Origin: a virus
Taxonomy: Duplodnaviria > Heunggongvirae > Uroviricota > Caudoviricetes
Strand: one strand, 5' to 3'
Virus record (IMG/VR): IMGVR_UViG_3300046477_000062
Location: 54,548 to 118,547 of that record
DNA: 64,000 bases
Shown in pieces: positions 20,753 to 55,501 of this stretch; position 1 is the first letter of the stretch, and every line of letters starts with the position of its first letter. Position numbers and translations under genes: made by a program. The notes under the pieces were generated by a model. The model was given only the letters and a program-made list of their open reading frames with translations, searched no databases and was not told where the DNA came from.

Positions 20753-20992
20753 ATGAACCTGTTCCGTATCTGCCTGTACGGTGGGAGAGAGTCTTTCCAT
20801 ACCGAAGACACGCCATTCGAGTGCTATGCCGACGCTGAAGTCTATGCTAGGGAGGAAGCGAAGATTTCGGGCGCATCTCTGTACGCGGTAGTCGATCTAA
20901 CAAACTTGGGAAATGATGTTGACAAGGTTCCCAAGTTTGGGTATGATTCACACATCGACAACAAACACAGGAGCGCAAGACATGGCAAATAA
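20753..20992 (+). CDS. hypothetical protein (C-terminal part doubtful; overlaps a promoter)
   Basis: ORF that runs through the 20919 promoter. Confidence 0.2.
   Translation: MNLFRICLYGGRESFHTEDTPFECYADAEVYAREEAKISGASLYAVVDLTNLGNDVDKVPKFGYDSHIDNKHRSARHGK
20919..20947 (+). promoter_or_regulatory. sigma70-like early promoter (TTGACA-N17-TATGAT)
   Basis: Flanked by a perfect 12-bp inverted repeat CAAACTTGGGAA / TTCCCAAGTTTG. Confidence 0.6.
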
Positions 20993-21128
20993 CTGGAAAG
21001 TGGATGATGCGACCGGCGAATGGACTCCGCTGTGCGAAGGTTCCCTGCAAGAGTGCAAGGACTTCTGTGCGATGTACGGCTTCAGCTACATCGTGTGCAA
21101 CGAGCGCAACATGCTGGTGGTTCTGTGA
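20982..21128 (+). CDS. small Cys-containing protein
   Basis: SD CAGGAG; 48 aa. Confidence 0.35.
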   Translation: MANNWKVDDATGEWTPLCEGSLQECKDFCAMYGFSYIVCNERNMLVVL

Positions 21129-21325
21129 AGACGCAGGATCAGGCCCGTAGAGAATTCGCGATCTACTACGAGGAAGTCAACGCGGACAGCAAGCGGGACG
21201 GTGGCGGCGGTGTTCATAAATCGGAACTGTGGGATATGTTCATCAATCACGGTATCGAAGAAGAACGCTTCCCCGCCGATGCGACGAACTGGAAGATGCC
21301 ACGGTCAACCAAGAAGTTAATCTAG
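21125..21325 (+). CDS. hypothetical protein (GTG start)
   Basis: ORF. Confidence 0.25.
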   Translation: MKTQDQARREFAIYYEEVNADSKRDGGGGVHKSELWDMFINHGIEEERFPADATNWKMPRSTKKLI

Positions 21326-21336
21326 GAGAGAAGAAC

Positions 21337-21597
21337 ATGTTGAGACTTCCCCCGCAAGACAGCGCAATCCGCGAGTGCTTCGATACGGCGCATCTTGCGG
21401 AACTCTGCGCACCCGAGAATCGGTTCAAGCTGCCGACCTTCCGGGAAGCACTGGCGAACGCGAAATCGTTCTTCACGGCGAACAAAGGTGTCCGTCAGGT
21501 AATTTCGATCACGCTGCGCGCCAATGGTGAACTGTGGCTGATCCAAGTTGGTCCGCGTGGCGGCTGGAAGGTTCTCTGGAATTTCGGACAACTGTAG
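21337..21597 (+). CDS. hypothetical protein
   Basis: SD GGAGAG. Confidence 0.35.
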   Translation: MLRLPPQDSAIRECFDTAHLAELCAPENRFKLPTFREALANAKSFFTANKGVRQVISITLRANGELWLIQVGPRGGWKVLWNFGQL

Positions 21598-21605
21598 GAG
21601 GGAGA

Positions 21606-21875
21606 GTGATTACCGTCAAATACTGTAAGCCCGCACCAAAGACGATCCGGGCTTGGATCGAGAAGAATCCCGAGAAGGTTGCTGAGTTCGACTGCGGCGG
21701 CGGTTATTCGAACGGATTCGCCTATGACATCCTGTTGGCTCCCGGCTGGCGCATGGGCGATGATTACGTCCACACACTCATATGCGACACCGTGGCTGAA
21801 ATGATGACCGAACTGCGCGCTGTCGTACCGTGTGACTGTGACGAGTGCAAAGAAATGCTGAAGCGAAAGACTTGA
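21606..21875 (+). CDS. hypothetical Cys-rich protein (GTG start)
   Basis: SD GGAGGGAG; CDCDEC motif. Confidence 0.3.
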   Translation: MITVKYCKPAPKTIRAWIEKNPEKVAEFDCGGGYSNGFAYDILLAPGWRMGDDYVHTLICDTVAEMMTELRAVVPCDCDECKEMLKRKT

Positions 21876-21900
21876 CAGATTCCCAAGTCTGGGTTAAGAT
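21872..21900 (+). promoter_or_regulatory. sigma70-like early promoter (TTGACA-N17-TAAGAT)
   Basis: Spacer GATTCCCAAGTCTGGGT. Confidence 0.6.
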
Positions 21901-21929
21901 TCACACATCGACAGCAAGGAGAGATTCAA

Positions 21930-23503: not shown

Positions 23504-23560
23504 TCGATCCGGGCGATGATGGGACCACAAACATCATCGCCCAAACTTGTAGATTTGTGG

Positions 23561-23566
23561 TATAAT
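23561..23566 (+). promoter_or_regulatory. extended -10 promoter (TGGTATAAT) with upstream CCCAAACTTG motif
   Basis: TGn plus TATAAT; no clear -35; 120-nt structured leader before rnh. Confidence 0.4.
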
Positions 23567-23687: not shown

Positions 23688-24650
23688 ATGATCCTTATAG
23701 ACTATAGCGGCACGGCCATCACACAGATCATGGGCGCGCTGCAAGGTGACAACACGGCTGTCATTGAACCCGATACGTTCCGTCACCTGTACCTGTATAA
23801 CCTGCTGGAATACAAGAAGAAGTACGGCAAGCGGTTCGGCAATATCGTGTTTGGCGTCGATAACAAGCAGTACTGGCGCAAGGCGATGTATCCGCACTAC
23901 AAGTGCTATCGGAAGAAGACCAAGGAAGATCAGGGCTACGATTGGGACATGATCCATCATTGCATGGATACCGTCAAAGCCGAACTGACTGAAATCTTCC
24001 CTTACCCGGTAGTCGATGCATCGTTCGCGGAAGCGGATGACGTGATCTACACGCTGGCCGAATTCTCGCATCTGAATTCGGGCAAGGAAGACATGTTTGG
24101 CGAACGTGAACCGGAACAGACGCTTATCATCGCGTCCGACACGGACTTGGTTCATTGTCAGAAATTCCCGGAAGTGAAGCAACTTTCGCCGTACACCAAG
24201 GAACAGGTTTTGCCGACCTTGGAACGCACGGTGAAGGGCGTCAAAGAGAAGTACAAGGTATCGCTCGATCACTTCCTTCTGGATCACATCCTGACGGGCG
24301 ATTCGGGCGATTCGATCCCGAATATCCTCACTGACGACGACTTCTTTGCGAAGAAGCTGGCCGACCCGGATACGAAGGTTCGACAAGCATCCGTAACTGC
24401 GAAGATCAAAGAGTTCTATGTGAACCAGTTGACTGAGCACGGTGAGATTCGTGAGTTCCGATCAGAAGCAGAAGAAAAGAACTTCAAGCGCAACAAGCGT
24501 CTGGTCGATCTGGGCGAGATTCCGCAACGCGTGAAAGACAAGGTTCTTGCCGTGTATCATGATCAACTTGGCAAAGACCGTTCGATGCTGCTGGACTACT
24601 TCACGAAGCATCGCCTGAAAAACCTGTTGGACGACATTCAAGAATTCTGA
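23688..24650 (+). CDS. rnh: RNase H (5'-3' exonuclease / FEN, T4 rnh family)
   Basis: Alignable to T4 RNase H: ILIDYSG, IVFGVDNKQYWRK, ADDVI. Confidence 0.8.
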   Translation: MILIDYSGTAITQIMGALQGDNTAVIEPDTFRHLYLYNLLEYKKKYGKRFGNIVFGVDNKQYWRKAMYPHYKCYRKKTKEDQGYDWDMIHHCMDTVKAELTEIFPYPVVDASFAEADDVIYTLAEFSHLNSGKEDMFGEREPEQTLIIASDTDLVHCQKFPEVKQLSPYTKEQVLPTLERTVKGVKEKYKVSLDHFLLDHILTGDSGDSIPNILTDDDFFAKKLADPDTKVRQASVTAKIKEFYVNQLTEHGEIREFRSEAEEKNFKRNKRLVDLGEIPQRVKDKVLAVYHDQLGKDRSMLLDYFTKHRLKNLLDDIQEF

Positions 24651-24652
24651 CC

Positions 24653-26678: not shown

Positions 26679-28211
26679 ATGAGCAAGCAATGTCCGCATT
26701 GCGAATCTGCGAAGGTGCAGAGTCGCGGGACCAAAACCAATCAAGCGGGTAGCACACGAAACCGTTATCAGTGTATGGACTGTCTGAAGTGGTTCAGCAC
26801 CGTGGTAAGTGAAGTGGTAGATCCGGAAGTCGTCGTTCCTCGATTCAGTTCCAGTACACCCAAAGATTTCGAAGGCTATGAACGCTTCGTCATCTCGGCT
26901 GTACAGAACGACACACTGGTCAACAAGCAATTCCTCGAATCGCTGAAGCTGTACTGCGAAGTCAACAAGGCCAAACTGATCCTTGTGCCGATCACCTACA
27001 AGGCGACCGAAGACTCACAGTACTGCGTCGATCCTGAACTGCTGGTGACGCAAGATGTCCTGTTGTCGAAGAAGCTTCGCCTGTTGGCCCATGTGCAGAT
27101 CAGTCCGACCATCGCAACGCCGCTGGCTGGCTTGGATGAACAGAGCAAGGGCAACAGCCTGATCATCGCGCATCCACAGCTACAGATGCGGACCCTTGCA
27201 ACACTCGAAGATTCTCCCATCCAACTTTGGACCACTGGTGCAATCACGTATGACAACTATGCACAGACGAAGACAGGCGAAAAGGCGAAATTCAACCATT
27301 CGCTTTCTGCCCTTGTCATTGAAAAAGACCATAATCAGTTCTACTGTCGTGTCCTTAATTGCGACGACGATAATGGATTCTACGACCTCGATCTGTATTA
27401 CGGCCCGACCGCCGTTCGTTCGACGGGCCAAGTAGAAGCACTGATTACGGGCGATGAACACGCGATGTTCACGTCCCCGGAAGTGAAGGCAGCAACCTAC
27501 ACTGGCGATAGTTCGCTAGTGAACCTGTTGAGGCCCAAGAAGATTGTGCGGCATGATGTGTTGGACTTCTTCACTGGTTCGCACCATCACCAACACAGCT
27601 TCCTACTTCAGTATGCGAAGCACAAGACGCGAACGAACATCGTTGAAGATGAACTGACGCTTACGCTTCGCTACATCGCAGAGACGACGCCATCGTATGC
27701 CGAAAACGTCATGGTCGCATCGAATCACGTTGAGCACATGAACAAGTGGCTTGACACGATTGATCCGAAGACTGAAGTTTGGAACGCCAAGCTTTACTAC
27801 CGGATGATGTACCTGATGCTGGACCACATTGACGAGAACGGTATCGACATTCCGAACGCGTTCCAGTTGTGGACGGAAACGACGCAGCATGAGTTCGCAA
27901 CCCCGAAGCTTCGTTGGTTGGGTCGCAATGAACCGTTCAAGATTCATGGCATCGAACTGTCAAACCACGGCGACATGGGTATCAATGGGTCGCGCGGCAG
28001 TCCTGCACAGTTCAGCCGTCTGCCTGACAAGATGGTCGTTGGACACAGCCACAGCCCGAGCATCATGAAGGGTTGCTACACGGTCGGAACATCGACTGGT
28101 CGGTTGGAATACACGAAGGGTCCGTCCTCATGGGCGAACAGTCATGTCGTGATCTACCCGAACGGCAAGCGTCAGTTGATCACGATCATCAACGGCAAGT
28201 ACCGTCTTTAA
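26679..28211 (+). CDS. N-terminal transposase-type zinc-ribbon plus C-terminal metallophosphoesterase-like domain protein
   Basis: CPHCES...RYQCMDCLKWFS; GDEH, SNHVEH and GHSHSP motifs. Confidence 0.5.
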   Translation: MSKQCPHCESAKVQSRGTKTNQAGSTRNRYQCMDCLKWFSTVVSEVVDPEVVVPRFSSSTPKDFEGYERFVISAVQNDTLVNKQFLESLKLYCEVNKAKLILVPITYKATEDSQYCVDPELLVTQDVLLSKKLRLLAHVQISPTIATPLAGLDEQSKGNSLIIAHPQLQMRTLATLEDSPIQLWTTGAITYDNYAQTKTGEKAKFNHSLSALVIEKDHNQFYCRVLNCDDDNGFYDLDLYYGPTAVRSTGQVEALITGDEHAMFTSPEVKAATYTGDSSLVNLLRPKKIVRHDVLDFFTGSHHHQHSFLLQYAKHKTRTNIVEDELTLTLRYIAETTPSYAENVMVASNHVEHMNKWLDTIDPKTEVWNAKLYYRMMYLMLDHIDENGIDIPNAFQLWTETTQHEFATPKLRWLGRNEPFKIHGIELSNHGDMGINGSRGSPAQFSRLPDKMVVGHSHSPSIMKGCYTVGTSTGRLEYTKGPSSWANSHVVIYPNGKRQLITIINGKYRL

Positions 28212-28741
28212 GCCGCTGGTGTAGCACGCTTCAGAACGTCATCCTTGTGTCCTTCATATTTGACGGGCACATGATGATTGTTTAGGACCACGGTCATACC
28301 GTTGGCTGTATAGCCGTGGTATCCGTGGTCCAGTACTGCACGTTCGAAGTCATTGTGTTCTTCTTCGCCGTTGTATTTGTGAGTTTCCGCAGTCTTGCGA
28401 ATCGCTGCACGTTCGTCTGGATGTGCCTTCGCATGATCATAAATCCCATGCAATGTTGCGCTATGCACATGCATCCCCAGACCGCCTTCATGCACAGGCG
28501 GTAACGCACCGTGTTCTTGTCGGTCATGGTTATAGAAGTAGACCCGAGACTTGATCCGGTCGTCCTTCGTCCATTGCAGACGCTTCCCTTCCGCACCTTT
28601 AATCCCCGTCCCCGAATATCGACCGTCCAGATGGTCAAGTCCCGGCTTGTTCGAGTAATGAATGCCGTGGACAGTCACGCCCTTCGTCGGCGCAGCTTCC
28701 TCGCGTTCGGCAAGGAACGATCTAAAAGTTTTCATTGACAT
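28211..28741 (-). CDS. histidine-rich hypothetical protein
   Basis: The only internal − strand gene; a CTAAATA box lies 21 nt upstream on the − strand. Confidence 0.45.
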
Positions 28742-28764
28742 ATCCCCAATGTTGTTGGTATTAT
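28735..28764 (+). promoter_or_regulatory. sigma70-like promoter (TTGACA-N18-TATTAT)
   Basis: Its -35 overlaps the start codon of the divergent − strand gene. Confidence 0.45.
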
Positions 28765-28768
28765 TTAG
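28762..28768 (-). promoter_or_regulatory. CTAAATA late-promoter box (− strand)
   Basis: Complement of TATTTAG; upstream of the − strand ATG at 28741. Confidence 0.35.
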
Positions 28769-28796
28769 GTTCAATACAACACCGGGAGAGACGCCC

Positions 28797-30070: not shown

Positions 30071-30098
30071 TTGACAAGAATTCCCAGACCTGTATAAT
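30071..30098 (+). promoter_or_regulatory. sigma70-like early promoter (TTGACA-N16-TATAAT), canonical cassette
   Basis: AGAATTCCCAGACCTG spacer; leader CCTTTTCATCGACAACACGAACGGGAG. Confidence 0.65.
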
Positions 30099-30133
30099 CC
30101 TTTTCATCGACAACACGAACGGGAGTAAACAAC

Positions 30134-30493
30134 ATGGGACTGATCGTAGAAGTTTATCGCGGCGCACGCGGACATGACTGCACCAACCACGGTATCTCGT
30201 CGCGGTATGATGAACTCTGTCTGGTGAACGTGGACGGACCTTCGGAACCAAGTCGAGAAGGTCCGGTCGCACCGGCATGGTTGGATTCACACTATCCGGG
30301 TTGCGTGCGTATCATCCCGGCCATCAAGAAGGATGGCGTCTGGGTTCCGTACCCCGAAAGCCCGATGTACGGCGGTAATGTGGCATGTACGTCCGACAGC
30401 CGGTTCTCGGAAGCCGTCGAAAAGCTTCTGGGTCACAACTGGTACGGCGCGGTCAAGATTCACGACCGCTTCGAGACGGCCCAAGAACTATGA
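30134..30493 (+). CDS. hypothetical protein
   Basis: ORF. Confidence 0.4.
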   Translation: MGLIVEVYRGARGHDCTNHGISSRYDELCLVNVDGPSEPSREGPVAPAWLDSHYPGCVRIIPAIKKDGVWVPYPESPMYGGNVACTSDSRFSEAVEKLLGHNWYGAVKIHDRFETAQEL

Positions 30494-30507: not shown

Positions 30508-30536
30508 TTGACACGATTTCCCACGTTTGGTAAGAT
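30508..30536 (+). promoter_or_regulatory. sigma70-like early promoter (TTGACA-N17-TAAGAT)
   Basis: Spacer TTCCCACGTTTGG; CCCAAACGTGGG palindrome in the leader. Confidence 0.6.
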
Positions 30537-30580
30537 TCTTTCTGTCCCAAACGTGGGACGAACTGATAGGAGATTAGCAC

Positions 30581-32652: not shown

Positions 32653-32671
32653 TTCCCAAGTTTGTTTCTGC

Positions 32672-32700
32672 TTGACATGACTCCCGAGTGCGCGTATGAT
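32672..32700 (+). promoter_or_regulatory. sigma70-like early promoter (TTGACA-N17-TATGAT)
   Basis: Spacer CTCCCGAGTGCGCG; a second copy of TTCCCAAGTTTG lies 20 nt upstream. Confidence 0.6.
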
Positions 32701-32733
32701 TCATCTCATACCAACGCAACGGGAGTTTTTCAC

Positions 32734-34221: not shown

Positions 34222-34249
34222 TTGACAACCACTCCCAGACCTGTATAAT
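34222..34249 (+). promoter_or_regulatory. sigma70-like early promoter (TTGACA-N16-TATAAT)
   Basis: Spacer ACCACTCCCAGACCTG. Confidence 0.6.
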
Positions 34250-34324
34250 CTGTCTCACGGTGAACGACAAAACAAACCAAGTCTGATCCGAAACAAACAA
34301 CAACTCTGATAAGGAATCTACACC

Positions 34325-34855
34325 ATGAAAAAGATCGCACTCGCATTCATTTCCGTCCTCGCAATCTCGACGGCAGCTTTCGCACACGACACCAACGTCG
34401 GTCAATCGGGCAGCGTCGCCGGTCAACTGAATGTCGGCGCACAGACCTCGCAGTACAGCGGCAACATCAACGGGTCGGCAACGTCCATCTCGAACGGCAA
34501 CGCAGTCACGGCGGCGCAAGTCGGCGGTCAGGGTCAGTCGATCCAGTCGGCCTTCAACAACACTGGCGGCACGTCCACGGTCGGCGGTTCGATCAACGCT
34601 GGTGGTGCAACGGTCGGTTCGGGTACGACGCAGTATTCGAACAGCACCGTGACCGGCAACGTGTCGGGCAACGCTCCCACGATGGACGGCAACAGCATCG
34701 CCAACGGCGGCGCAGCGTTCGGTAACACGACCACGACCGCGAATGTCGGTGCGAACTTCGGTTCGAATGTGCAAGGTGGAACCCTCGGCATCAACGGTTC
34801 GGCTGGTTTCCAAGCGGTCGGCAGCATCGGCGGCGCACACGGCTTCGGGCAGTAA
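34325..34855 (+). CDS. secreted Gly/Asn/Ser/Thr-rich repeat protein (curlin-like low complexity)
   Basis: Signal peptide MKKIALAFISVLAISTAAFA; G/N/S/T-rich repeats. Confidence 0.45.
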   Translation: MKKIALAFISVLAISTAAFAHDTNVGQSGSVAGQLNVGAQTSQYSGNINGSATSISNGNAVTAAQVGGQGQSIQSAFNNTGGTSTVGGSINAGGATVGSGTTQYSNSTVTGNVSGNAPTMDGNSIANGGAAFGNTTTTANVGANFGSNVQGGTLGINGSAGFQAVGSIGGAHGFGQ

Positions 34856-34955: not shown

Positions 34956-34990
34956 CGAGACGGGAACCGTTCGGGGTAACGGTTCCCGTC
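34956..34990 (+). other. perfect 14-bp stem hairpin in the intergenic region
   Basis: AGACGGGAACCGTT-cggggt-AACGGTTCCCGTCT. Confidence 0.5.
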
Positions 34991-35014
34991 TCAACATCCG
35001 GGAGTAATACAACA

Positions 35015-35620
35015 ATGAAGAAAATCGTACTTGCTGGCATTCTTGCACTCGCATCCATCGTCGCACAGGCACAAACGGTTGACGCATCGGCAACGACCAC
35101 AACCAACACCGCATCCACTTCGGGCGCACTGAATCAGGGTGTCTCGCTTCAGAACACGTTCAACAGCCCGGACAAGGTGGACTACGCCGGTTCCTATACG
35201 GTCAAGTCGGCTCCGTCGATTCAAGCTGCATCGGGATACGGTTCGTTCTCCCAACAAAACTGTATGGTGTCCGGTTCGGCTGGCATCTCCATCGTGGGAT
35301 TCGGCGCAACGGGTCAGACGCCTATCGATGGCGCACGATGCGATCTGCGCGTCGATCAACAGAACATGGCATCGACCGCGATCACGATTCATAACTTCGT
35401 CGCCACAAATCCCAAGGTTGCGGACAACCTGAAGATGTCGCTGGACGAGAAAGCCGCCGCCTTGCTTCAGGCTGCTGGTGATATGTCCTGTCTCGCTTCG
35501 GATCGTCAGCGTGCAGTGATGGAGAAGAAGGGGCTGTGTAAGGAAGTTGGCGACATCGCCACGCTGGATCACCGCTTCGGTCAGCCCCGCTCGACCCAGA
35601 TCGACTACAGCAACGAATAG
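35015..35620 (+). CDS. secreted protein (signal peptide, Cys pairs)
   Basis: Signal peptide MKKIVLAGILALASIVAQA. Confidence 0.45.
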   Translation: MKKIVLAGILALASIVAQAQTVDASATTTTNTASTSGALNQGVSLQNTFNSPDKVDYAGSYTVKSAPSIQAASGYGSFSQQNCMVSGSAGISIVGFGATGQTPIDGARCDLRVDQQNMASTAITIHNFVATNPKVADNLKMSLDEKAAALLQAAGDMSCLASDRQRAVMEKKGLCKEVGDIATLDHRFGQPRSTQIDYSNE

Positions 35621-35649
35621 TTGACACGTATTCCCAGACTTGTTATAAT
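35621..35649 (+). promoter_or_regulatory. sigma70-like early promoter (TTGACA-N17-TATAAT)
   Basis: Spacer CGTATTCCCAGACTTGT. Confidence 0.6.
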
Positions 35650-35677
35650 TCGGTTCTAAGATCAAGAAGGGGAAGAA

Positions 35678-39397: not shown

Positions 39398-39412
39398 ATT
39401 CCCAGATTTGGG

Positions 39413-39441
39413 TTGACAAGTTAAGGACCAACAGGTATGAT
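39413..39441 (+). promoter_or_regulatory. sigma70-like early promoter (TTGACA-N17-TATGAT) embedded in a terminator hairpin
   Basis: AATTCCCAGATTTGGG motif upstream of the -35; hairpin GGACCAACAGG/CCTGTTGGTCC plus TTTTT (39425..39461). Confidence 0.5.
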
Positions 39442-39478
39442 TCTGCCTGTTGGTCCTTTTTCATTTCAGGAGATTGCT

Positions 39479-39781
39479 ATGACGAAACGTACCCTCGAAG
39501 AACGCGTGAAGTTCGACTGTGGCTTCCTGATCGGCCACAAGTACGGCGTGCGTCTCGCGAAGAATGGCGTACAGTCGCGCTATGCGGTCGTATTCATCCC
39601 GCAACGTGGCCGTGCCCGTCTGGTCATCAAGACGCACCTTCATGGCAACGTGTACGCCATCAACACGTCGATGATCAAGGGTGACGATCTGGTGTTCCTT
39701 GGCTACTCCACGAAGCCCGCCGATCTGGACGAGTTCAATGAACTGATCGCGGACCCGGATTGCAAGGTCATCGAGTTCTAA
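39479..39781 (+). CDS. hypothetical protein
   Basis: SD AGGAG. Confidence 0.4.
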   Translation: MTKRTLEERVKFDCGFLIGHKYGVRLAKNGVQSRYAVVFIPQRGRARLVIKTHLHGNVYAINTSMIKGDDLVFLGYSTKPADLDEFNELIADPDCKVIEF

Positions 39782-39799
39782 AATTCCCGCGTTTGGGTA

Positions 39800-39828
39800 T
39801 TGACGAAGGATTCTCAAACATGTAGAAT
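39800..39828 (+). promoter_or_regulatory. sigma70-like early promoter (TTGACG-N17-TAGAAT)
   Basis: AATTCCCGCGTTTGGG upstream; leader CCTTTTCATCGAATCAACAACGGAG. Confidence 0.55.
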
Positions 39829-39861
39829 CCTTTTCATCGAATCAACAACGGAGTGCAGCAC

Positions 39862-40505: not shown

Positions 40506-40867
40506 CCATCCGCAAAGTCAACTCCGCTGCACCAATTACCGAAGCCGATGCTGGCAAGTTCATCAATCGCGATACGATCTGGCGCGATGGCTTTTGTAGC
40601 CGTCCCGCACGCGTCACAAAGGTCGCAAAGAGTCGCGTCTACTACAACGACACGGCCCGCGTCCGGAACAACCGAGAGTGTGTCGGCTTCACCGTCGAAG
40701 AAGGCGAATCGTTCTGTAAGATGGATAGCATCAAGTTCCTCTGCGACACCATCGAAGAAGCCGCGAAGCTGGAAAAGATGTCGGAAAACCAAGTCCGGGA
40801 AATCAACGAATCGCGCAAGGTCATCATCGAAAAGTACAACAGACTTGTAGATTCTCTCTTGACATGA
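40502..40867 (+). CDS. hypothetical protein
   Basis: ORF. Confidence 0.4.
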   Translation: MTIRKVNSAAPITEADAGKFINRDTIWRDGFCSRPARVTKVAKSRVYYNDTARVRNNRECVGFTVEEGESFCKMDSIKFLCDTIEEAAKLEKMSENQVREINESRKVIIEKYNRLVDSLLT

Positions 40868-40887
40868 ATTCCCAAGTTCGGTAGAAT
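40859..40887 (+). promoter_or_regulatory. sigma70-like early promoter (TTGACA-N17-TAGAAT)
   Basis: Spacer TGAATTCCCAAGTTCGG. Confidence 0.6.
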
Positions 40888-40925
40888 TCTTCATATCGAA
40901 TTAACAACCCCGTAGGAGTTACGCT

Positions 40926-42478: not shown

Positions 42479-42507
42479 GTTGACAACGACCGGCATTGAG
42501 CGTACAA
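42479..42507 (+). promoter_or_regulatory. sigma70-like early promoter (TTGACA-N17-TACAAT)
   Basis: Upstream CAAACTTG motif. Confidence 0.5.
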
Positions 42508-42553
42508 TTCTTTGTGTCGGTTCTGAAACAAAAACACCTTTGGGAGTTTCATC

Positions 42554-43265: not shown

Positions 43266-43568
43266 GTGTCGAATAACCTGATCAACAGTCCTGAAGCAAA
43301 GAAGCGTTTCAACAACAAGCTGTCGGAAATCTCGGCGTCCTTTACCCGCGTTGAAGCTGAACGCGATCTGGTGAAGACCATCGTGTCCGACCTCGCTGAA
43401 GAATTCCAGATCGACAAGAAGATCGTCAATCTGCTGGCCCGCACGTATCACAAGTCGGACTTCAAAGAGAAGGTCGCAGAGAAGACCGAATTCGAAATCA
43501 TCTACGAAACCATTACGGGTGAAAGCCCGGAAGCCGGTGATTCGTATAACGGCGAAGATGGCGAGTGA
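43266..43568 (+). CDS. acidic hypothetical protein (GTG start)
   Basis: ORF. Confidence 0.35.
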   Translation: MSNNLINSPEAKKRFNNKLSEISASFTRVEAERDLVKTIVSDLAEEFQIDKKIVNLLARTYHKSDFKEKVAEKTEFEIIYETITGESPEAGDSYNGEDGE

Positions 43569-45951: not shown

Positions 45952-46116
45952 ATGAGCAAAGACATTAAAGCATTCCTCGCACTGGTTGGTGTTTATCTTG
46001 TCGTCCATGTCGTCCATGTCATCGGTGCGGCATTGGGATTCGACGAAAATGCAGTTTCGCTTGGCTACATCGGCGGAATCGTGGGAAGCTACACCTACAC
46101 GGCACTTCGCAATTGA
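45952..46116 (+). CDS. small two-TM membrane protein
   Basis: Hydrophobic 54-aa ORF. Confidence 0.3.
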   Translation: MSKDIKAFLALVGVYLVVHVVHVIGAALGFDENAVSLGYIGGIVGSYTYTALRN

Positions 46117-46386: not shown

Positions 46387-46415
46387 TTGACAATGGTGGG
46401 AATCTTGTTTAAGAT
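46387..46415 (+). promoter_or_regulatory. sigma70-like early promoter (TTGACA-N17-TAAGAT)
   Basis: Spacer has GGTGGGAATC (inverted family motif); ATTCCCA follows the -10. Confidence 0.55.
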
Positions 46416-46445
46416 TCCCATTATCGTTTCTACAGGAGGAAAGTT

Positions 46446-46576: not shown

Positions 46577-46780
46577 ATGCGAGTGACCCTCAACAAGATC
46601 AACGCGGCAATCAAGGCCGCTGGTGGCGATGAAGAACTGGTCCGTGGCAATGGCTACTTCTACTTCGTGGGAGACGAAACCCCGCTGTGGCCGCAAGCGA
46701 GCGTCTACACGATGTTCCTGAGTGACTTCACCGTGGAAGAATGGGTTGACATGTGGCGATCAATGAAGGAGAGAAAGTGA
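46577..46780 (+). CDS. hypothetical protein
   Basis: ORF. Confidence 0.35.
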   Translation: MRVTLNKINAAIKAAGGDEELVRGNGYFYFVGDETPLWPQASVYTMFLSDFTVEEWVDMWRSMKERK

Positions 46781-46953
46781 TGCAAGAAACAACTAAAGAC
46801 CCGGTTAAGACGTTCTACCTTCTTGGCTTCAACGATGTCATGTTTCGCGGGCGTAAGCGTAGGCGTCCGGTCGGTGTCATGTACAAGCTTGCCTACACCG
46901 ATGGTTGGTTTGACGCAAAGTTAGGACGTGGAAACCGCTACAAAGATAAATAA
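46780..46953 (+). CDS. hypothetical basic protein
   Basis: SD AAGGAGAG. Confidence 0.4.
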   Translation: MQETTKDPVKTFYLLGFNDVMFRGRKRRRPVGVMYKLAYTDGWFDAKLGRGNRYKDK

Positions 46954-47902: not shown

Positions 47903-47928
47903 GCCGGTCGAAAGATCGGCCTTTTTTG
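47903..47928 (+). terminator. rho-independent terminator
   Basis: GGCCGGTC-gaaa-GATCGGCC followed by TTTTTTG. Confidence 0.6.
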
Positions 47929-47938
47929 TTTCTGGGTA

Positions 47939-47967
47939 TTGACAATGAATTCCCAGACCTGTATATT
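47939..47967 (+). promoter_or_regulatory. sigma70-like early promoter (TTGACA-N17-TATATT)
   Basis: Spacer ATGAATTCCCAGACCTG. Confidence 0.55.
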
Positions 47968-48001
47968 TCTTCTCACTGACACACATCCGGGAGAGAACGA
48001 C

Positions 48002-48322
48002 ATGGCAAAGGCAATTTACGATCTGCGCGACGGCAAGAACCACGCTCAATACCTCGTCTTGAAGAAGGCATCGGGTCATTACCTGATCTTCGCGAACAAC
48101 GTAACCGATGCCGTTGGCGAAATCCGCAAGCGTGCGCACAACGACTGGTACGGTGAAGTCACCATCGATGACATGTTCTTCAACTGCTGCGATGACAGTC
48201 TCGCGGATGTCATGAGTGGTCTGGAAACGTGCATCGTGCGCAACGGCAAGCCGGGTTCGATCTACCAGAAGGATGCGGCAGCGTGGACACAAAACCTGTT
48301 GGATCGTCTCCGAAAGGGTTGA
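48002..48322 (+). CDS. hypothetical protein
   Basis: Leader CCGGGAGAG. Confidence 0.4.
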   Translation: MAKAIYDLRDGKNHAQYLVLKKASGHYLIFANNVTDAVGEIRKRAHNDWYGEVTIDDMFFNCCDDSLADVMSGLETCIVRNGKPGSIYQKDAAAWTQNLLDRLRKG

Positions 48323-48346
48323 CATTCATTCCCGAGTCTGTATAAT
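48319..48346 (+). promoter_or_regulatory. sigma70-like early promoter (TTGACA-N16-TATAAT)
   Basis: Spacer TTCATTCCCGAGTCTG; leader CATCGACAACGCACTTGGGAG. Confidence 0.6.
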
Positions 48347-48381
48347 TCATTCCATCGACAACGCACTTGGGAGAGCAGCAA

Positions 48382-49009: not shown

Positions 49010-49024
49010 TTTTCATGTTTGGGA

Positions 49025-49053
49025 TTGACATCAGGTTCCCAAACCTGTAGAAT
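49025..49053 (+). promoter_or_regulatory. sigma70-like early promoter (TTGACA-N17-TAGAAT)
   Basis: Spacer TCAGGTTCCCAAACCTG; leader TCTTTTCATCGACAACGAAACGGGAG. Confidence 0.65.
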
Positions 49054-49087
49054 TCTTTTCATCGACAACGAAACGGGAGATTCAAAC

Positions 49088-50280: not shown

Positions 50281-50706
50281 ATGGCAGTAGAAAACTTTGA
50301 ATCACCGTATGCGATCATCATCGGTACGGACTCCTACACAGGCAACTTCGAACGCGAACTGTGTGCCTACATCACCGGTTCGGTTGGTGAATGTGGTGTT
50401 GGTGAATCGAAGGCCGAAGACTTCAGCGACGAGCACCCAGACAGCAATCTTCCCGACATGACTGATAATGTCCCGGATGATCGCGGATGTTATCGTCCGG
50501 TTTCGATTTACAACGATGGTGATAGCTACAATTCACTAATCATCTTCTTTCAGGACGCACCGAACCTCGAAGAAATCGACCTGATGGTCGCACGCACAAA
50601 GGAATTCTTCGCGACGTTCCAGAAGACGGTCACGTTGAAGTCGTTCCGCCTGATTTCGAACAAAGTCGTTCGCCAACAATCCACCCTCATTGATGTAACA
50701 ATCTGA
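50281..50706 (+). CDS. hypothetical protein
   Basis: ORF. Confidence 0.4.
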   Translation: MAVENFESPYAIIIGTDSYTGNFERELCAYITGSVGECGVGESKAEDFSDEHPDSNLPDMTDNVPDDRGCYRPVSIYNDGDSYNSLIIFFQDAPNLEEIDLMVARTKEFFATFQKTVTLKSFRLISNKVVRQQSTLIDVTI

Positions 50707-52091
50707 TGACCGTACTTGAAATCCTAAATCAAATCGCCGCTACGTCGAAGAAGACAGAGAAAGAAGCGATCCTGAAGCAACACGCGGAAAACGAAACTCT
50801 GAAGCGGGTCTTCTATCTCGCATATCAACCAACCATCAACTTCTATACGAAGCGCATCCCCGCCTATACGCCCAATACGGGCGAGAAGTCGATCTTTGAC
50901 GACGAAGATACCTTCACCCTCGATGCGGCGCTGGACGCCATTGAGACGGTTCTGGCGAAGCGTAAGGTGACTGGTAACGCAGCATCGACGTATCTGGCAA
51001 ATCTGTTGACGCAGCTTCACGCGGACGATGCCACGGTCCTCGAACGAGTGGTCCTGCGTGACCTTCGCATCGATGCGGGCGCAAACACGGCTAATAAGGT
51101 CTGGAAGGGGCTGATCCTCGATGTCCCCTACATGCGGTGCAGTCTCCCCAAGGAAGTCAAGCTTGCCACGTTTCCGTGGGTCACAGGGCTATATTCGCAA
51201 CTGAAGTCGGACGGCAGCTTCACGAACGTCAACGTGTTCGAAGATGGCACGGTTGAGTTCATGACGCGCAATGGCAACATCTACCCGGTCGAAGACTTCA
51301 CGCCCATCGCGAATATCTTCTCGACGGCCATCGGAACTCGCGGGTTCCAGTTCCACGGTGAATTGCTGGTCTACAAAGACGGCGAACTGATGGAACGCGC
51401 CGAAGGCAATGGCGTTCTGAACAAGATTCAACAGGGCAAGAACAAGCTTCCGGCTGGTCACGAAATCCGCTTCGTTGCATGGGACATGATCCCGATTGAA
51501 GCAGCGGTTCCGAAGGGCAAGTACGAAGTCCCGTACAAGATTCGTCTGGCACAGCTTGAAGCGCTGAACCTGTTCGGCCAAGTGACGGTCGTGGAAACGA
51601 AGCGGGTGCATTCGATCCGCGAAGCATACGAGCACTATCAAGAACAGTTGGCACTTGGTCTGGAAGGTACGATCCTAAAAGACCCAGAAGCGATCTGGGA
51701 AGACACGACATCAAAGAAGCAAGTCAAGTTCAAGCTGGAAGTGACCATCGAACTTGAATGTGTTGGCTTCAATCCGGGCAAGGGTAAGAACGCTTCGACT
51801 TTCGGTAGCGCCAAGCTTCGTAGTTCTGATGGTCTGCTGACGGTGAACTGTTCGGGCTTCAAAGATGCCGACCGCAAGTACATCAGCGAGAACCGTGACG
51901 ACTTTATCAGCACCATCTGGGCGGTCAAGTCGAACGCCATGACGAAGAAGCGTGCCGATGGAACCCGCAGTCTGTTCTTGCCGCAGTACGTCGAACAACG
52001 CAACGACAAGAGCGAAGCGGATTCACTTGAACGCATCGAACTCCAATTCGAATCGGCAGTGACCGACCTCGAAAAACTGATCGCAATGTAA
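50706..52091 (+). CDS. 30: ATP-dependent DNA ligase (T4 gp30 family)
   Basis: N-terminus alignable to T4 ligase (ILNQIAAT.SKKEKEAILKQH..NE.LKRVF); KSDG adenylation motif. Confidence 0.8.
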   Translation: MTVLEILNQIAATSKKTEKEAILKQHAENETLKRVFYLAYQPTINFYTKRIPAYTPNTGEKSIFDDEDTFTLDAALDAIETVLAKRKVTGNAASTYLANLLTQLHADDATVLERVVLRDLRIDAGANTANKVWKGLILDVPYMRCSLPKEVKLATFPWVTGLYSQLKSDGSFTNVNVFEDGTVEFMTRNGNIYPVEDFTPIANIFSTAIGTRGFQFHGELLVYKDGELMERAEGNGVLNKIQQGKNKLPAGHEIRFVAWDMIPIEAAVPKGKYEVPYKIRLAQLEALNLFGQVTVVETKRVHSIREAYEHYQEQLALGLEGTILKDPEAIWEDTTSKKQVKFKLEVTIELECVGFNPGKGKNASTFGSAKLRSSDGLLTVNCSGFKDADRKYISENRDDFISTIWAVKSNAMTKKRADGTRSLFLPQYVEQRNDKSEADSLERIELQFESAVTDLEKLIAM

Positions 52092-52101: not shown

Positions 52102-52446
52102 ATGTACGGCCTGATTGAAGACGAAGAACAGAAAGCAGAGAAGTTCACCCTGAGAATCAAGTTCGAAGAACCGAAGTTGAGTGACTTCAACGTGATCGTC
52201 ACGCGTGATCGGAACCTCGACATCAACACGTACTACTTCATGCGAAAGTTCCGTACTCTCGATGTTCGGAACTACAACAACAGCGCGTTCGGCGGTCATA
52301 TCACTTCGCTGGAACTCGCAGAACAGTGCGATCACGTTGTCTCACACTTCAACGACAAGACGTTCAAGGTCTTGAAGTGTCGTGGGGGGGGGCGTAGCGG
52401 CGCGGTCGCCCTGCGACTGGTGGCCGACTATCTTGAATCGATCTGA
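52102..52446 (+). CDS. hypothetical protein (contains a G9 homopolymer tract)
   Basis: ORF. Confidence 0.4.
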   Translation: MYGLIEDEEQKAEKFTLRIKFEEPKLSDFNVIVTRDRNLDINTYYFMRKFRTLDVRNYNNSAFGGHITSLELAEQCDHVVSHFNDKTFKVLKCRGGGRSGAVALRLVADYLESI

Positions 52447-52774: not shown

Positions 52775-52817
52775 ACAGTAGTACCGATCATCCTCTCATA
52801 GTAGGAGCAACACCAAC

Positions 52818-53612
52818 ATGGCACGAAATAAAAGGGCAAACAGTTCAACCAAGCCCGCCGTGAAATCCAACGCACAGGCACAAAGCGTTCAGCGTCAAGA
52901 TCAACGTCAACAAGTCGATCACGTCACGAATCGCCTGAAACTGCGTATTGATGATCTGAAAGTATTTGATCCGCTGACACAGAATCAGCGAGTGTTCTTC
53001 GAAGAATATGCCAATCAACAGAACATGGCGTTCGTTCTTCACGGTGCAGCGGGCAGCGGGAAAAGTTTCATTGCCCTGTACAAAGCACTCGAAACTGTGT
53101 TGGACCCGTCGCTTCCGTTTGATGGTGTTGTCATCGTGCGATCAGCGGTCCCCGGTCGTGACATCGGTCACTTGCCCGGTAGCGAAGAAGAAAAGTTGGC
53201 AGTCTACGAGCAACCCTACATCGGCATCTGCGCTGACCTGTTCGGACGCCATGATGCATACCAACGACTGAAAGAAGCTAGCAATATCGACTTCATTTCA
53301 TCGTCATTCATCCGTGGCACGACGCTGGACAACAAGATCGTGATCGTGGACGAAATGCAGAACTACAGTTGGGAAGAACTGTACACGATTGCAACTCGCG
53401 TAGGACACCGTACCAAGATCATCTTTGCTGGCGACCTGCGTCAGACTGACCTTCGCAAGCGTGGCGATCCTTCCGGTTTGGTGAAGTTCCTCGACATCAT
53501 GGCTACCATCCAGAATGTCGCAGAGATTGAATTTGGTGTCCCCGACATCGTGCGGTCAGCTTTCGTCAAGGCAGTCATCGTCGCAACCATGAATTACGAC
53601 GACGCACATTGA
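52818..53612 (+). CDS. phoH: PhoH-like ATPase
   Basis: Walker A GAAGSGKS; PhoH-family architecture. Confidence 0.75.
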   Translation: MARNKRANSSTKPAVKSNAQAQSVQRQDQRQQVDHVTNRLKLRIDDLKVFDPLTQNQRVFFEEYANQQNMAFVLHGAAGSGKSFIALYKALETVLDPSLPFDGVVIVRSAVPGRDIGHLPGSEEEKLAVYEQPYIGICADLFGRHDAYQRLKEASNIDFISSSFIRGTTLDNKIVIVDEMQNYSWEELYTIATRVGHRTKIIFAGDLRQTDLRKRGDPSGLVKFLDIMATIQNVAEIEFGVPDIVRSAFVKAVIVATMNYDDAH

Positions 53613-53634
53613 AGTTCTGAAGGGTTCTGATCGG

Positions 53635-53641
53635 CTAAATA
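53635..53641 (+). promoter_or_regulatory. CTAAATA late-promoter box within a CTAAATATTAGGT module and hairpin
   Basis: GGCTAAA/TTTAGCC and GGGTTC/GAACCC inverted repeats; 32 nt upstream of the endolysin ATG. Confidence 0.45.
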
Positions 53642-53673
53642 TTAGGTCAAGTTTAGCCCGAGAGGAACCCTTA

Positions 53674-54183
53674 ATGTCTTATACCCTGTCCGCAGCGGGC
53701 GCAAACCTTATCAAGCAGTTCGAAGGATGTAAACTCACTGCTTACTACGATTCGGTTCGTGTCCTTACTATTGGTTATGGAACGACCAACAGCGTCCTTC
53801 CTACAAGCCAACAGATCAAACCCGGTCAAACCATCACACAGGCACAGGCGGATGTATTTCTGGCCCTCGGCGTGAATAAGTTTGCACCCGGCGTCAACAA
53901 TCTGGTCAAAATCCCAATTTCGCAGAATGAGTTCGATTCGCTGGTTTGCTTCGCCTACAATGTTGGGACTGGCAACCTTGCTTCCTCAACTTTGCTGCGC
54001 AAACTGAATGCTGGCGACTTTGCTGGCGCACAGAAAGAATTCCTGAAGTGGAACAAAGCCGGTGGTCAAGTCCTACGTGGCCTGACCCGTCGCCGTCTCG
54101 CGGAAGCCGTCAACTTTGGTCCCCTGTCACGCCAAGAACTGATCGATCAGTGCCTTGGTGGTGTCGATCCCGATAAAGCATAA
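53674..54183 (+). CDS. e: endolysin, T4 lysozyme-like (GH24 muramidase)
   Basis: LIKQFEGCKLTAYYDSVRVLTIGYGTT catalytic N-terminal motif. Confidence 0.8.
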   Translation: MSYTLSAAGANLIKQFEGCKLTAYYDSVRVLTIGYGTTNSVLPTSQQIKPGQTITQAQADVFLALGVNKFAPGVNNLVKIPISQNEFDSLVCFAYNVGTGNLASSTLLRKLNAGDFAGAQKEFLKWNKAGGQVLRGLTRRRLAEAVNFGPLSRQELIDQCLGGVDPDKA

Positions 54184-54194
54184 GAGAACAACAA

Positions 54195-55472
54195 ATGTCC
54201 CTGAATTTTTGGCAAATGCGCGGCCAACTGGATGCACTGAAGCTTGTCACCGAAGAACTGACTTCGGTAGAGAAGGGTACGCATCTGGAAGTGACGCCAT
54301 CGCATATGAAGAAGCCGCTTCACGCTGGCACGGCCATCGAGCATCGCGACAATCCTTCGCACTACGGACCAGACGGCCACGCTGCGCTGGATTCGCATGT
54401 AAAGTCTGTCCTTGCTGACCCGTCAAAGAACAGCGTCTACAAGTCGGCTGACAGCTACACCAAGGAACAACGCGGCCACGGCTACGAGTTCCACGACGAT
54501 CAACCCAAGTCATCGTTGCGCAAGCAGTATGTGATCGGCAAGACGTATGATCTGGCAACCCAGAATCATCCCGAGTACAAGCGTTCTGTGTTTGATGGCT
54601 ACGTGAAGAATCGCCCGGACATCATCAAGCAGACGCGAGCGCATGACTACGATTCGATGGTGCATGGATCGTACAAAGCAGTGGCAAAGGAAACGAACGC
54701 ACAGTTCGAACACATGCCGGTGCGCACGCAGCATCACGATGGTCAGATGGGCTATCACAACAGCGGCGAGATGCTGCGTGACATTCATGGTCACAACAAT
54801 CTCACGGTGTATCGCGGCGGTGATCGTCACGAATTCCTACACCACACGGACAAGACCGGCCTGAACGAGAACGAGAAGTTCCGTGCAGTTCATGACTACT
54901 ATGGTCATGGTATCTATGGCAACCAGTTTGGTCCGAAGGGTGAAGAAGTGGCGTGGCACTCGCACCGCAAGATGTTCTCGCATGGTGCGGCTGTGGCGAT
55001 GACTTCGGAAACACGCGGTCAGAACAGCTACGTGAATTACACGCACGCGAATCTTGGCACACAGAAGGAAATGGAAGGCCATCGCAAAGACAAGCACGCA
55101 GCACTGAACGCTGGTGACTTTGAAGGCGCGAAGCAATCCGACGAGAAGCTTCGTGAGGCTGGCGGCAAGTGGAACTATGCGAAGCAAGCATCGGTAGCAC
55201 TGCCCCATGAGATGCTTCACCCGCACTTCGACGGCAATGCACCGAAGTCGATTGCGCACTTGCTGCATGATCCGGCTGCACGCGAGAACCCGACATACGA
55301 TGTTCATAAGGATCACTTGGGGTTGGTCGAATTGGCCCGCCATCACAATACGTCTTCGCACAACCGTCAAGGCGGCGGTGTTCTGGATCGCGACAATGCA
55401 CATTCCGATCTGAAGCACATCGCTGGTGTCCACGGCTATTCGAAGTTGAGTCACAACCCGTTTCGGGGATAA
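54195..55472 (+). CDS. histidine-rich hypothetical protein
   Basis: ORF; extreme His content throughout. Confidence 0.45.
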   Translation: MSLNFWQMRGQLDALKLVTEELTSVEKGTHLEVTPSHMKKPLHAGTAIEHRDNPSHYGPDGHAALDSHVKSVLADPSKNSVYKSADSYTKEQRGHGYEFHDDQPKSSLRKQYVIGKTYDLATQNHPEYKRSVFDGYVKNRPDIIKQTRAHDYDSMVHGSYKAVAKETNAQFEHMPVRTQHHDGQMGYHNSGEMLRDIHGHNNLTVYRGGDRHEFLHHTDKTGLNENEKFRAVHDYYGHGIYGNQFGPKGEEVAWHSHRKMFSHGAAVAMTSETRGQNSYVNYTHANLGTQKEMEGHRKDKHAALNAGDFEGAKQSDEKLREAGGKWNYAKQASVALPHEMLHPHFDGNAPKSIAHLLHDPAARENPTYDVHKDHLGLVELARHHNTSSHNRQGGGVLDRDNAHSDLKHIAGVHGYSKLSHNPFRG

Positions 55473-55501
55473 TTGACAAGCGCGGGGATTTGTGGTAAAA
55501 G
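55473..55501 (+). promoter_or_regulatory. sigma70-like promoter (TTGACA-N17-TAAAAG/AAAGAT)
   Basis: The -35 abuts the stop of the upstream gene; AATTCCCAAACATGG and AATTTCCAAAAGG repeats in the leader. Confidence 0.4.

Follow-up and report, generated by a model that had tools for sequence, protein, structure and literature searches.

A conserved, inversion-tolerant box in the near-consensus promoters of an uncultured T4-type phage suggests a protein-binding site

What do the many promoter-like sequences in the replication arm of an uncultured T4-type phage have in common, and are they copies of one shuffled cassette? The question is raised by a stretch of 64,000 nucleotides from a tailed phage (positions 54,548 to 118,547 of IMG/VR record IMGVR_UViG_3300046477_000062), termed the window here. 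The original prediction described about 22 copies of a conserved early promoter plus leader in it, each driving a single small open reading frame (ORF) and resembling the promoter early stem-loops (PeSLs) of other T4-type phages. According to the reading that we consider probable, these are sigma-70-type promoters of the early and replication arm, a subset of which is equipped with insulating hairpins, and they carry a box, TTCCCA-N4-TG(GG), that would be bound by a protein. Each cassette consists of a moderately AT-rich stretch of 20 nt, TTGACA, a spacer of 16-18 nt, TAnnAT, the dinucleotide TC, a short leader, a ribosome-binding site (RBS) and ATG. Relatives for comparison were found solely as metagenome-derived contigs. 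Two of these measure ~168 kb each (IMGVR_UViG_3300047444_000069 and IMGVR_UViG_3300046519_000060; ~61 and ~69 kb of them were compared) and share ~88% (contig A) and ~76% (contig B) nucleotide identity with the window, and several contig fragments represent more distant relatives; further sequences used in the comparison are labelled L015 (here called B1), L016, L118, L119, L003 and L083.

The strict pattern TTGACA-N16/17-TAWRAT was matched 11 times, compared with 0.02 expected matches, and 10 of the 11 are located on the plus strand. A relaxed scan, which allowed at most two mismatches in all and retained T1, A2 and T6 of the -10 hexamer, gave 19 plus-strand matches and one minus-strand match in the window; with the weaker sites the set comprises 21-22 members, named here by their coordinates. 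All sites with at least 10 of 12 matching positions in an independent promoter scan coincide with the coordinates listed originally, except +30286, -1524 and -6859. The 22 listed sites without exception lie in intergenic gaps, which make up only ~10% of the window, and are co-oriented with the genes, so that the predicted intergenic enrichment is present and the near-consensus promoter set is real. Most of the listed promoters are strong, and four on the plus strand (30071, 34222, 35621 and 48319) are perfect. The list was less accurate in that 8856 and 55473 (whose -10 lacks the final T) are weak, 23561 consists of an extended -10 alone, and a perfect promoter on the minus strand at 6859 had been missed. 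The AT content is 60% in positions -20 to -1 and 53% in positions -40 to -1, compared with 48% in the window, which is a modest effect. The cassettes divide ~57 kb of co-oriented genes into ~21 units, and orthologous cassettes occupy the same positions in genomes down to ~75% nucleotide identity. Judging from their sequences, the promoters would be recognized by sigma-70 and would act early. The notion that they are chance or compositional matches to the sigma-70 consensus has a negligible probability: a low-stringency scan (9 of 12 matches) does find the same number of sites as in shuffled sequence, but the excess of strict matches, the 19:1 strand bias, the intergenic placement and the conservation in relatives all contradict it.

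Alignment of the cassettes on the -10 hexamer revealed which parts are shared. These are both hexamers, the TC that immediately follows the -10, a loosely conserved (C)ATCGA close to the probable start, and the RBS. The -10 hexamer and the ATG are 28-45 nt apart in 17 of 22 cassettes, the leader is A/C-rich, and GGGAG, GGAG or AGGA precedes the ATG in 18 of 22, with GGGAG or GGAG located 5-8 nt from it. Conservation beyond the hexamers, as claimed originally, is therefore found in TC, (C)ATCGA and RBS, but the leader string that had been quoted, TTTCATCGACAAC, occurs exactly in only two cassettes and with one mismatch in a third. Likewise, the quoted spacer string is exact or near-exact in only three to four copies, and what persists of it is the box described below. 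The term copies is not appropriate for the set as a whole, which is united by shared motifs and not by repeated DNA. The longest exact block common to any two cassettes is 19 nt, blocks of at least 12 nt are shared by just 9 of 210 pairs, and the median pairwise local alignment score is 13, compared with 10 for random windows. A recently spread mobile repeat, similar to miniature inverted-repeat transposable elements or borne by mini-circles, would owe its similarity to copying. Such an origin could account for the 19 nt shared by 30071 and 47939, for the leaders shared by 30071 and 49025 and by 39800 and 49025, and for the leader of the 48319 type that follows the 47939 promoter in contig A. 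It is nevertheless very improbable, given a median similarity barely above that of random windows, the lack of longer shared blocks, the positional retention of orthologous cassettes, a conservation that is position-specific, and the absence of terminal repeats and target-site duplications at the cassettes.

The transcription units also differ from the single small ORFs assumed originally. Intervals between promoters hold one gene in three cases (30134-30493, 39479-39781 and 48002-48322), two genes in three, three to six in 11 and nine to 14 in five, with a median of ~4, and they include enzyme genes (NadR-like/NAMPT, ligase, a primase-like gene and nrd genes). The ORF directly behind each cassette is indeed small (42-176 amino acids in most cases), and none of these first ORFs belongs to a PHROG of known function.

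The most distinctive element of the cassettes is the box in the spacer. The spacer element TTCCCANNNNTG occurs 17 times compared with 1.9 expected occurrences, and in a position weight matrix scan 18 of the 19 best box matches were located within 60 bp of a promoter. Twelve of 21 promoters harbor the box in forward orientation in the spacer, where TTCCCA starts 4 (+/-1) bases past TTGACA. In about five further promoters a reversed box is found at the same place, with the CA of TTGACA forming its TG end. Four promoters have a box just upstream of the -35 (17342, 32653, 39399 and 39784), and many have two sites, the second often 27-75 bp from the first. Where room allows, the right side reads TGGG, which results in the partial palindrome CCCA-N4-TGGG. 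The hexamer is offset by ~10 from the start of the -35 in both orientations. A single palindromic operator with a fixed centre was also considered and rejected, as the centres of forward and reversed boxes are 9 bp apart and it is the hexamer position that is fixed instead.

Comparison of 23 orthologous pairs showed that the box is conserved position by position. The five bases of TTCCC carry 1, 0, 0, 0 and 0 substitutions, position 6 carries two, the N4 segment 9, 3, 4 and 4, and TG none, whereas flanking positions carry three to five. At the orthologues of promoter 8856 the 14-bp box is inverted in place while flanks, -35 and -10 are identical: the window and contig A have CAAGTCTGGGAATG, and the inverted form is found in L016 (CATTCCCGGACTTG) and B1 (AATTCCCAGACGTG). 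The explanation that best accounts for position-specific conservation together with tolerance of either orientation is a protein that recognizes its sequence in double-stranded DNA, and position-specific selection argues against mere common descent of the cassettes. This suggests that the box is a protein-binding site. It is partly palindromic, overlaps the core promoter and is conserved at specific positions, as befits a repressor operator, and the protein would most simply be a repressor that blocks these promoters.

The box is still present in the most distant relatives. Two unrelated IMG/VR contigs, L073 and L110, contain 14-24 near-identical sigma-70 cassettes within 13-14 kb; these have A/T-rich tracts upstream and an extended -10 of the TGn type, and the box is absent from both contigs. 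Dense arrays of consensus promoters are common among phages, and lineages differ in the extra conserved element; on the sequences compared, the box is clade-specific and not a general feature of sigma-70 cassettes in phages. In IMG/VR the exact cassette pattern had no match, and a looser pattern matched 102 loci, mostly unrelated single chance matches, with enrichment in contigs of the same clade alone. A blastn search of one cassette against isolated phages returned matches at noise level; a match to Ralstonia phage RSP15 (E = 8) was rejected, as that genome belongs to the Ackermannviridae and is unrelated. CcrM (GANTC) and EcoRI-like sites were likewise dismissed as a cassette feature, being inconsistent and incidental.

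An alternative reader of the box would be RNA polymerase itself, with the host sigma factor or in a phage-modified form, so that the box would represent a promoter element specific to this phage-host pair. This would fit the constant distance of 4 nt between box and -35 hexamer in at least 12 promoters, the location of TG 0-3 nt ahead of the -10, near the position of an extended -10 TG, and the cassette-wide conservation beyond the hexamers in other large phages (L073 and L110). However, forward and reversed boxes occupy the same place, one orthologous promoter has its box flipped in place, the box is also found upstream of the -35 and, at 55533, downstream of the promoter, the distance of its TG to the -10 is variable, and promoters without it (42480, and 39413 with respect to the spacer) possess equally good hexamers. 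Direct reading by RNA polymerase is disfavoured by this indifference to orientation and by the variable placement, and we regard it as quite unlikely. The simpler idea that TG is the extended -10 motif was rejected, because TG keeps its distance to the box and to the -35 but not to the -10.

The second question concerns the stem-loop half of the proposed PeSL likeness. PeSLs, described in RB49/phi1, T4/PST and KVP40/nt-1 (Arbiol et al. 2010, PMC2839356; Comeau et al. 2014, PMC4122927), combine an AT-rich flank with a stem-loop for the termination of upstream transcription, followed by a sigma-70-like promoter, an RBS and an ATG. Promoter, RBS and ATG are also present here, but only ~8-10 of the 21-22 promoters are enclosed by or adjoin a hairpin. 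The tail of strong hairpins is enriched: folds of -22 kcal/mol or lower occur in 8 of 21 promoter regions compared with 15% of controls, and folds of -28 kcal/mol or lower in 4 of 21 compared with 1.7%. Complementarity of the spacer is significant at seven promoters. Two types of hairpin can be distinguished. The loop of the first contains the -35, and its 3' arm is made by the spacer (5136, 20919, 47939 and 49025). The second has the spacer as its 5' arm, the -10 within loop or stem, and a 3' arm that belongs to the leader (30508, 32672, 39413, 46387 and 55473). Five sites resemble intrinsic terminators with a T-run, of which three overlap the promoter (5136, 32672 and 39413) and two lie just upstream of it (8856 and 47939).

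Several of these hairpins are maintained in relatives. For the hairpin at 5136, 98% of cells are paired across six relatives and four pairs show compensatory changes, a combination of pairing and covariation that was reached by none of 500 shuffles. The hairpin at 30508 shows a compensatory A>G / T>C change in contig B, that at 32672 is retained or stronger in A, B and L003, and the stem at 39413 is retained in contig B via G.U wobble pairs. At 46387 spacer and -10 have changed together in A and B (TAAGAT to TAGAAT), and in the L003 orthologue of 35621 the box pairs with leader and RBS. Termination at these hairpins, and hence insulation of the promoters, is likely from the predicted folds. 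In ~40% of the cassettes the promoter would be located inside a hairpin whose loop contains the -35 or -10 and one of whose arms is the spacer. Read-through RNA would carry both arms and terminate (at 5136, 32672 and 39413, and at the separate terminators of 8856 and 47939), and at 32672 its RBS would be paired. Locally started RNA would lack the 5' arm. This corresponds to the logic of PeSLs in a more overlapped geometry.

These hairpins give rise to another explanation for the box itself, which could be the surviving arm of a PeSL-type stem-loop, kept for a hairpin or cruciform or as homology or target for recombination. It would then correspond to the stems GGGG...CCCC in RB49 and AAAGGG...CCCTTT in nt-1. 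Inverted box pairs do flank the -35 at 20919, 49025, 47939, 5136 and L083-4565, and the box makes the stem of conserved hairpins at 5136, 30508 and L003-3763. Exchange junctions map to the leader, shortly past the -10, which is also the case for the mini-circles of RB49. PeSL stems have conserved G-tracts and C-tracts, and a recombination protein has been proposed as their possible binder (PMC2839356, PMC4122927). On the other hand, a complementary partner is missing at 12 of 21 promoters, and at 20919, 47939 and 49025 relatives have lost the pairing but retained TTCCC and TG. A stem requires complementarity and not an invariant TTCCC...TG with a free N4; at L083-5084 inverted boxes have N4 segments that are not complementary. 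Promoters with two boxes have them in direct as well as inverted arrangement (8856, 32672 and 39800), and indels are not enriched at cassettes. Invariant bases around a free centre, lone boxes and the loss of pairing with retention of the box argue against a purely structural role, and we consider the stem-arm explanation somewhat unlikely. A related proposal, that TTCCC acts as an anti-RBS in read-through RNA, fits 32672 and L003-3763 but was rejected on account of the reversed copies and the inversion in place.

If a protein binds the box, which protein might this be? The best lead is a 68-amino-acid winged-helix protein encoded behind promoter 3964 (PF14090, E = 1.9e-6); the DsbA-like gene product is a further candidate. 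The winged-helix protein shares 96% identity with its counterpart in A, 91% in B1, 84% in L016 and 75% in L118, which exceeds the conservation of its neighbour, and a homologue search with a word index found five close relatives only. Its structure is predicted with confidence (predicted local distance difference test score 85.5), and its resemblance to known winged-helix regulators, with wings of the MarR type, is weak. The promoter region of its gene contains three box-like sites (plus-strand ends 3857, 3982 and 4038), and the stretch ~4052-4273 of its leader does not align with contig A. It is possible, and we propose it only tentatively, that the box is the operator of a new regulator of all sigma-70 promoters, encoded by the phage (for instance this winged-helix protein) or by the host.

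Several observations weigh against the combination of insulating hairpins and a protein-bound box. Promoter 42480 appears good although it has no box. Overall, the fold strength of promoter regions is not significantly different from that of random windows (Mann-Whitney p = 0.30), and the hairpins that enclose the -35 of 20919, 47939 and 49025 have been lost in relatives. Forward boxes are C-rich and partly complementary to the GGGAG of the RBS, so that a role at the RNA level is possible for them. The winged-helix model had no significant match in the PDB (best E = 0.05), and the protein is a candidate.

The cassettes can be compared with several known systems. Like PeSLs, they place many near-consensus sigma-70-like promoters in intergenic gaps of the early, plastic region of a T4-type genome, with an AT-richer upstream flank and with RBS and ATG at the end; a subset has terminator-like stem-loops with G-tract and C-tract, and some gene-exchange junctions lie between -10 and ATG. 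They differ from PeSLs in that the stem-loop overlaps the promoter instead of forming a separate upstream module, stem-loops are missing from the majority of the cassettes, exact identity between paralogues does not exceed 19 nt, and indels are not enriched at cassettes in two genome comparisons. Moreover, selection acts on specific positions of the C-tract box, which tolerates being inverted and is also found singly. This selected, orientation-tolerant box is the new element with respect to known PeSLs, and the cassettes are otherwise a local version of a known kind.

Early promoters of T4 are of the host sigma-70 type, with a GTTTAC-like -35 and extra conservation in upstream A-tracts and an extended -10. 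The promoters of the window would likewise be of a strong type that depends on host polymerase, located ahead of small early genes and conserved beyond the hexamers, but they have a GC-rich box in mid-spacer and a perfect TTGACA as -35. In the T4 genes e, soc, 49 and I-TevI the RBS is hidden in a hairpin on read-through RNA and freed on RNA from an internal late promoter. A similar arrangement is predicted at 32672 and at the L003 orthologue of 35621, where the spacer pairs with the RBS region, so that only RNA started upstream would hide the RBS; the internal promoters are of the sigma-70 type here and late in T4. Arc and Mnt of P22, p4 of phi29 and TF1 of SPO1 exemplify operators in promoter spacers and phage proteins that shut off early promoters. 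With these systems the box shares a short, partly palindromic site between -35 and -10, often accompanied by a second site, whereas its palindrome is imperfect and no homology to those regulators was found. The sites of a separate class of putative promoters lie apart from the cassettes. The window lacks the T4 late promoter TATAAATA, and CTAAATA occurs 10 times compared with 2.1 expected occurrences, mostly 6-105 nt upstream of gene starts that include lysozyme and gp32. By its distribution, CTAAATA is probably the late-promoter motif of the clade.

Do the cassettes serve as vehicles of gene shuffling, as the original prediction suggested? The region from 20.9 to 50 kb is full of indels between relatives. 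Indel or replacement events touch a cassette in 6 of 21 cases between window and contig A and in 8 of 24 between window and contig B. Cassettes are present at 21 of the 119 gene boundaries, so that chance alone would account for 18-32% and there is no overall enrichment, except that four of five contig B-specific insertions are located at cassettes. Most single-gene indels have no cassette at either end, for example 45952-46116, 46780-46953, 50281-50706, 52102-52446 and 56379-57041. The view that cassette-flanked ORFs are the variable units is thus not borne out, as indels are no commoner at cassettes than at other gene boundaries. Some junctions do map to the cassettes, and events start just downstream of the -10 or in the leader at 17406, 20968, 48004, 39843 and 40891. 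The clearest case is 47939, where contig A has kept terminator, -35, box and -10, followed by a leader of the 48319 type and two extra genes ahead of the orthologous gene. The identity of at most 19 nt between paralogous cassettes is thin for homologous recombination. In RB49, mini-circle crossovers map between -10 and ATG, which is the same part of the element as here (PMC2839356, PMC4122927). The cassettes are occasional exchange points but not demonstrably the main vehicle of shuffling.

The genomic context agrees with the assignment to T4-type phages, as the window encodes UvsX, a gp41-like helicase, RNase H, DsbA, gp33, gp59, gp32 and a baseplate protein. Genes for T4-type replication, recombination and nucleotide metabolism were identified by Pfam and PHROGs (Table 1), and further genes are those for ThyX, nrdA/B, dCMP deaminase, PhoH, lysozyme and Acb1. 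A gene map based on codon usage shows ~120 plus-strand genes up to 60,796 and minus-strand structural genes beyond; the GC content is ~52% throughout, and neither tRNA genes nor Rfam families were detected in the window. The helicase shares at most 55% protein identity with gp41 of cyanomyoviruses, and megablast of 20 kb against 50,697 phage records gave no match. Judged by these comparisons, the phage represents an uncultured lineage of the T4 superfamily without a close DNA match among sequenced phages.

Table 1. Promoter cassettes, selected genes and CTAAATA sites in the window (hexamers are given as -35, spacer length, -10)
Feature	Positions	Strand	Promoter	Box or hairpin	Leader, gene and comparison
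3964	3964..3992	+	TTGACC-17-TACAAT	reversed box CA-CGTT-TGGGAA in spacer, 3969-3980	283-nt leader, then 68-amino-acid winged-helix gene 4276-4482; conserved in A, B1, L016, L118, L119
5136	5107..5195	+	TTGACA-17-TATAGT (5136-5164)	terminator-like hairpin, arms 5107-5116 and 5143-5152, then T-run; -35 in loop, promoter overlapped	leader with GGAG; ATG 5196
6859	6831..6859	-	perfect TTGACA-17-TATAAT	box-like AATCCCCAACATTG	conserved in L016, L119
8856	8822..8925	+	weak TTGCAA-17-GATAAT (8856-8884)	intrinsic-terminator-like hairpin 8822-8845; reversed box 8862-8873
17360	17342..17418	+	TTGATC-17-TATAAT (17360-17388)	upstream box 17342-17353	window-specific gene of 66 amino acids inserted downstream of 17406
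20919	20901..20981	+	TTGACA-17-TATGAT (20919-20947)	inverted box pair 20901-20912 and 20928-20939 around -35; boxes but not pairing kept in contig A	leader CACATCGACAAC..AGGAG; ATG 20982
21872	21872..21929	+	TTGACA-17-TAAGAT	forward box TTCCCAAGTCTGGG 21880-21893	short leader; ATG 21930
23561	23511..23566	+	extended -10 TGGTATAAT 23558-23566, without -35	stem-loop 23511-23542	121-nt leader, then RNase H gene; conserved in contig A
28735	28735..28796	+	TTGACA-18-TATTAT	degenerate box ATCCCCAATGTTG	GGGAG; ATG 28797
30071	30071..30133	+	perfect TTGACA-16-TATAAT	box TTCCCAGACCTG 30081-30092	leader CCTTTTCATCGACAAC..ACGGGAG; ATG 30134; one-gene unit
30508	30508..30580	+	TTGACA-17-TAAGAT	spacer box 30519-30530 pairs with leader 30547-30558; -10 in loop
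32672	32653..32733	+	TTGACA-17-TATGAT (32672-32700)	upstream box 32653-32664; spacer CTCCCGAGTGCG 32680-32692 pairs with RBS region CGCAACGGGAGT 32715-32726, then TTTTT
34222	34222..34324	+	perfect TTGACA-16-TATAAT	box CTCCCAGACCTG	75-nt leader
35621	35621..35677	+	perfect TTGACA-17-TATAAT	box TTCCCAGACTTG	6-gene unit, last genes NadR-like and NAMPT
39413	39399..39478	+	TTGACA-17-TATGAT (39413-39441)	box TTCCCAGATTTGGG 39399-39412 abutting -35; 15-bp terminator hairpin 39423-39458 and T-run, encloses promoter, -10 in loop
39800	39784..39861	+	TTGACG-17-TAGAAT (39800-39828)	box TTCCCGCGTTTGGG 39784-39797; second box with one mismatch in spacer	leader CCTTTTCATCGAATC..ACGGAG
40859	40859..40925	+	TTGACA-17-TAGAAT	box TTCCCAAGTTCG; reversed box ~56 nt upstream (+ strand end 40803)
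42480	42480..42553	+	TTGACA-17-TACAAT	no box	11-gene unit including DsbA-like gene
46387	46387..46445	+	TTGACA-17-TAAGAT	reversed spacer box 46395-46406 pairs with -10 and discriminator 46411-46422
47939	47906..48001	+	TTGACA-17-TATATT (47939-47967)	terminator hairpin 47906-47921 and T-run; box TTCCCAGACCTG	one-gene unit; exchange junction with contig A
48319	48319..48381	+	perfect TTGACA-16-TATAAT	box TTCCCGAGTCTG	leader CATTCCATCGACAAC..TGGGAG
49025	49017..49087	+	TTGACA-17-TAGAAT (49025-49053)	inverted partial box 49017-49024; box TTCCCAAACCTG	leader TCTTTTCATCGACAAC..ACGGGAG; ~10-gene unit including ligase gene
55473	55473..55573	+	weak: TTGACA-N18, poor -10 TAAAAG	strong box downstream 55533-55546
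UvsX	269-1381				Pfam/PHROGs
gp41-type helicase	1668-3083				Pfam/PHROGs
RNase H	23688-24650				Pfam/PHROGs
NadR-like gene with NAMPT	36892-39397				Pfam/PHROGs
DsbA-like gene	43266-43568				Pfam/PHROGs
Ligase	50706-52091				Pfam/PHROGs
CTAAATA	3087, 6710, 7843, 19287, 25783, 52464, 53635, 59238, 59700	+
CTAAATA	28768-28762	-

Some features lie beside or apart from the cassettes. The minus-strand promoter 6859 is directed at a bidirectional terminator at 6376-6395. Its predicted transcript is conserved over the first ~160 nt, where no ORF is present but a hairpin shows a compensatory change. The transcript is antisense to a plus-strand ORF of 93 amino acids (6432-6713), most of which is deleted in L119, and may represent a small or antisense RNA. 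The codon-usage model predicts a minus-strand ORF of 175 amino acids at 28208-28735, which ends at promoter 28735 and would be the sole such gene in the plus-strand block, and contig B has a 729-bp insertion at its far end. A perfect 16-bp hairpin at 34956-34993 occupies the gap between the genes 34325-34855 and 35015-35620; on the gene strand it lacks a T-run, and the terminator scan lists it on the minus strand. A homologue of Acb1, which counteracts the cyclic-oligonucleotide-based anti-phage signalling system (CBASS), is encoded at 57652-58158 (Pfam E = 6e-34), between the genes for gp33 and gp59 and not directly behind a cassette. An Endonuclease VII domain at 13076-13495, in the gene region 12939-13493, is part of a segment without alignment to contig A, which has 41 bp in its place, as though the segment were mobile, and a SegE-like GIY-YIG homing endonuclease is found at 19752-20153.

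Gene shuffling in T4-type phages has been proposed to be driven by composite promoter-terminator cassettes, which have been described in few cultured groups. The uncultured metagenome clade with ~52% GC studied here shows the cassette idea in a more compact form, with promoters located within terminator hairpins. It also provides a first quantitative check of the shuffling model, in which cassettes mark some exchange junctions without enrichment of indels. About 20 strong, compact promoter-leader parts with natural variants are available, and the conserved box is a testable handle on the control of early transcription in T4-like phages. If the box is indeed the operator of a new regulator, the binding of a protein to operators in the promoter spacers would enable this clade to shut off, or to time, its early transcription, a route that would differ from the sigma-appropriation by AsiA and MotA in T4.

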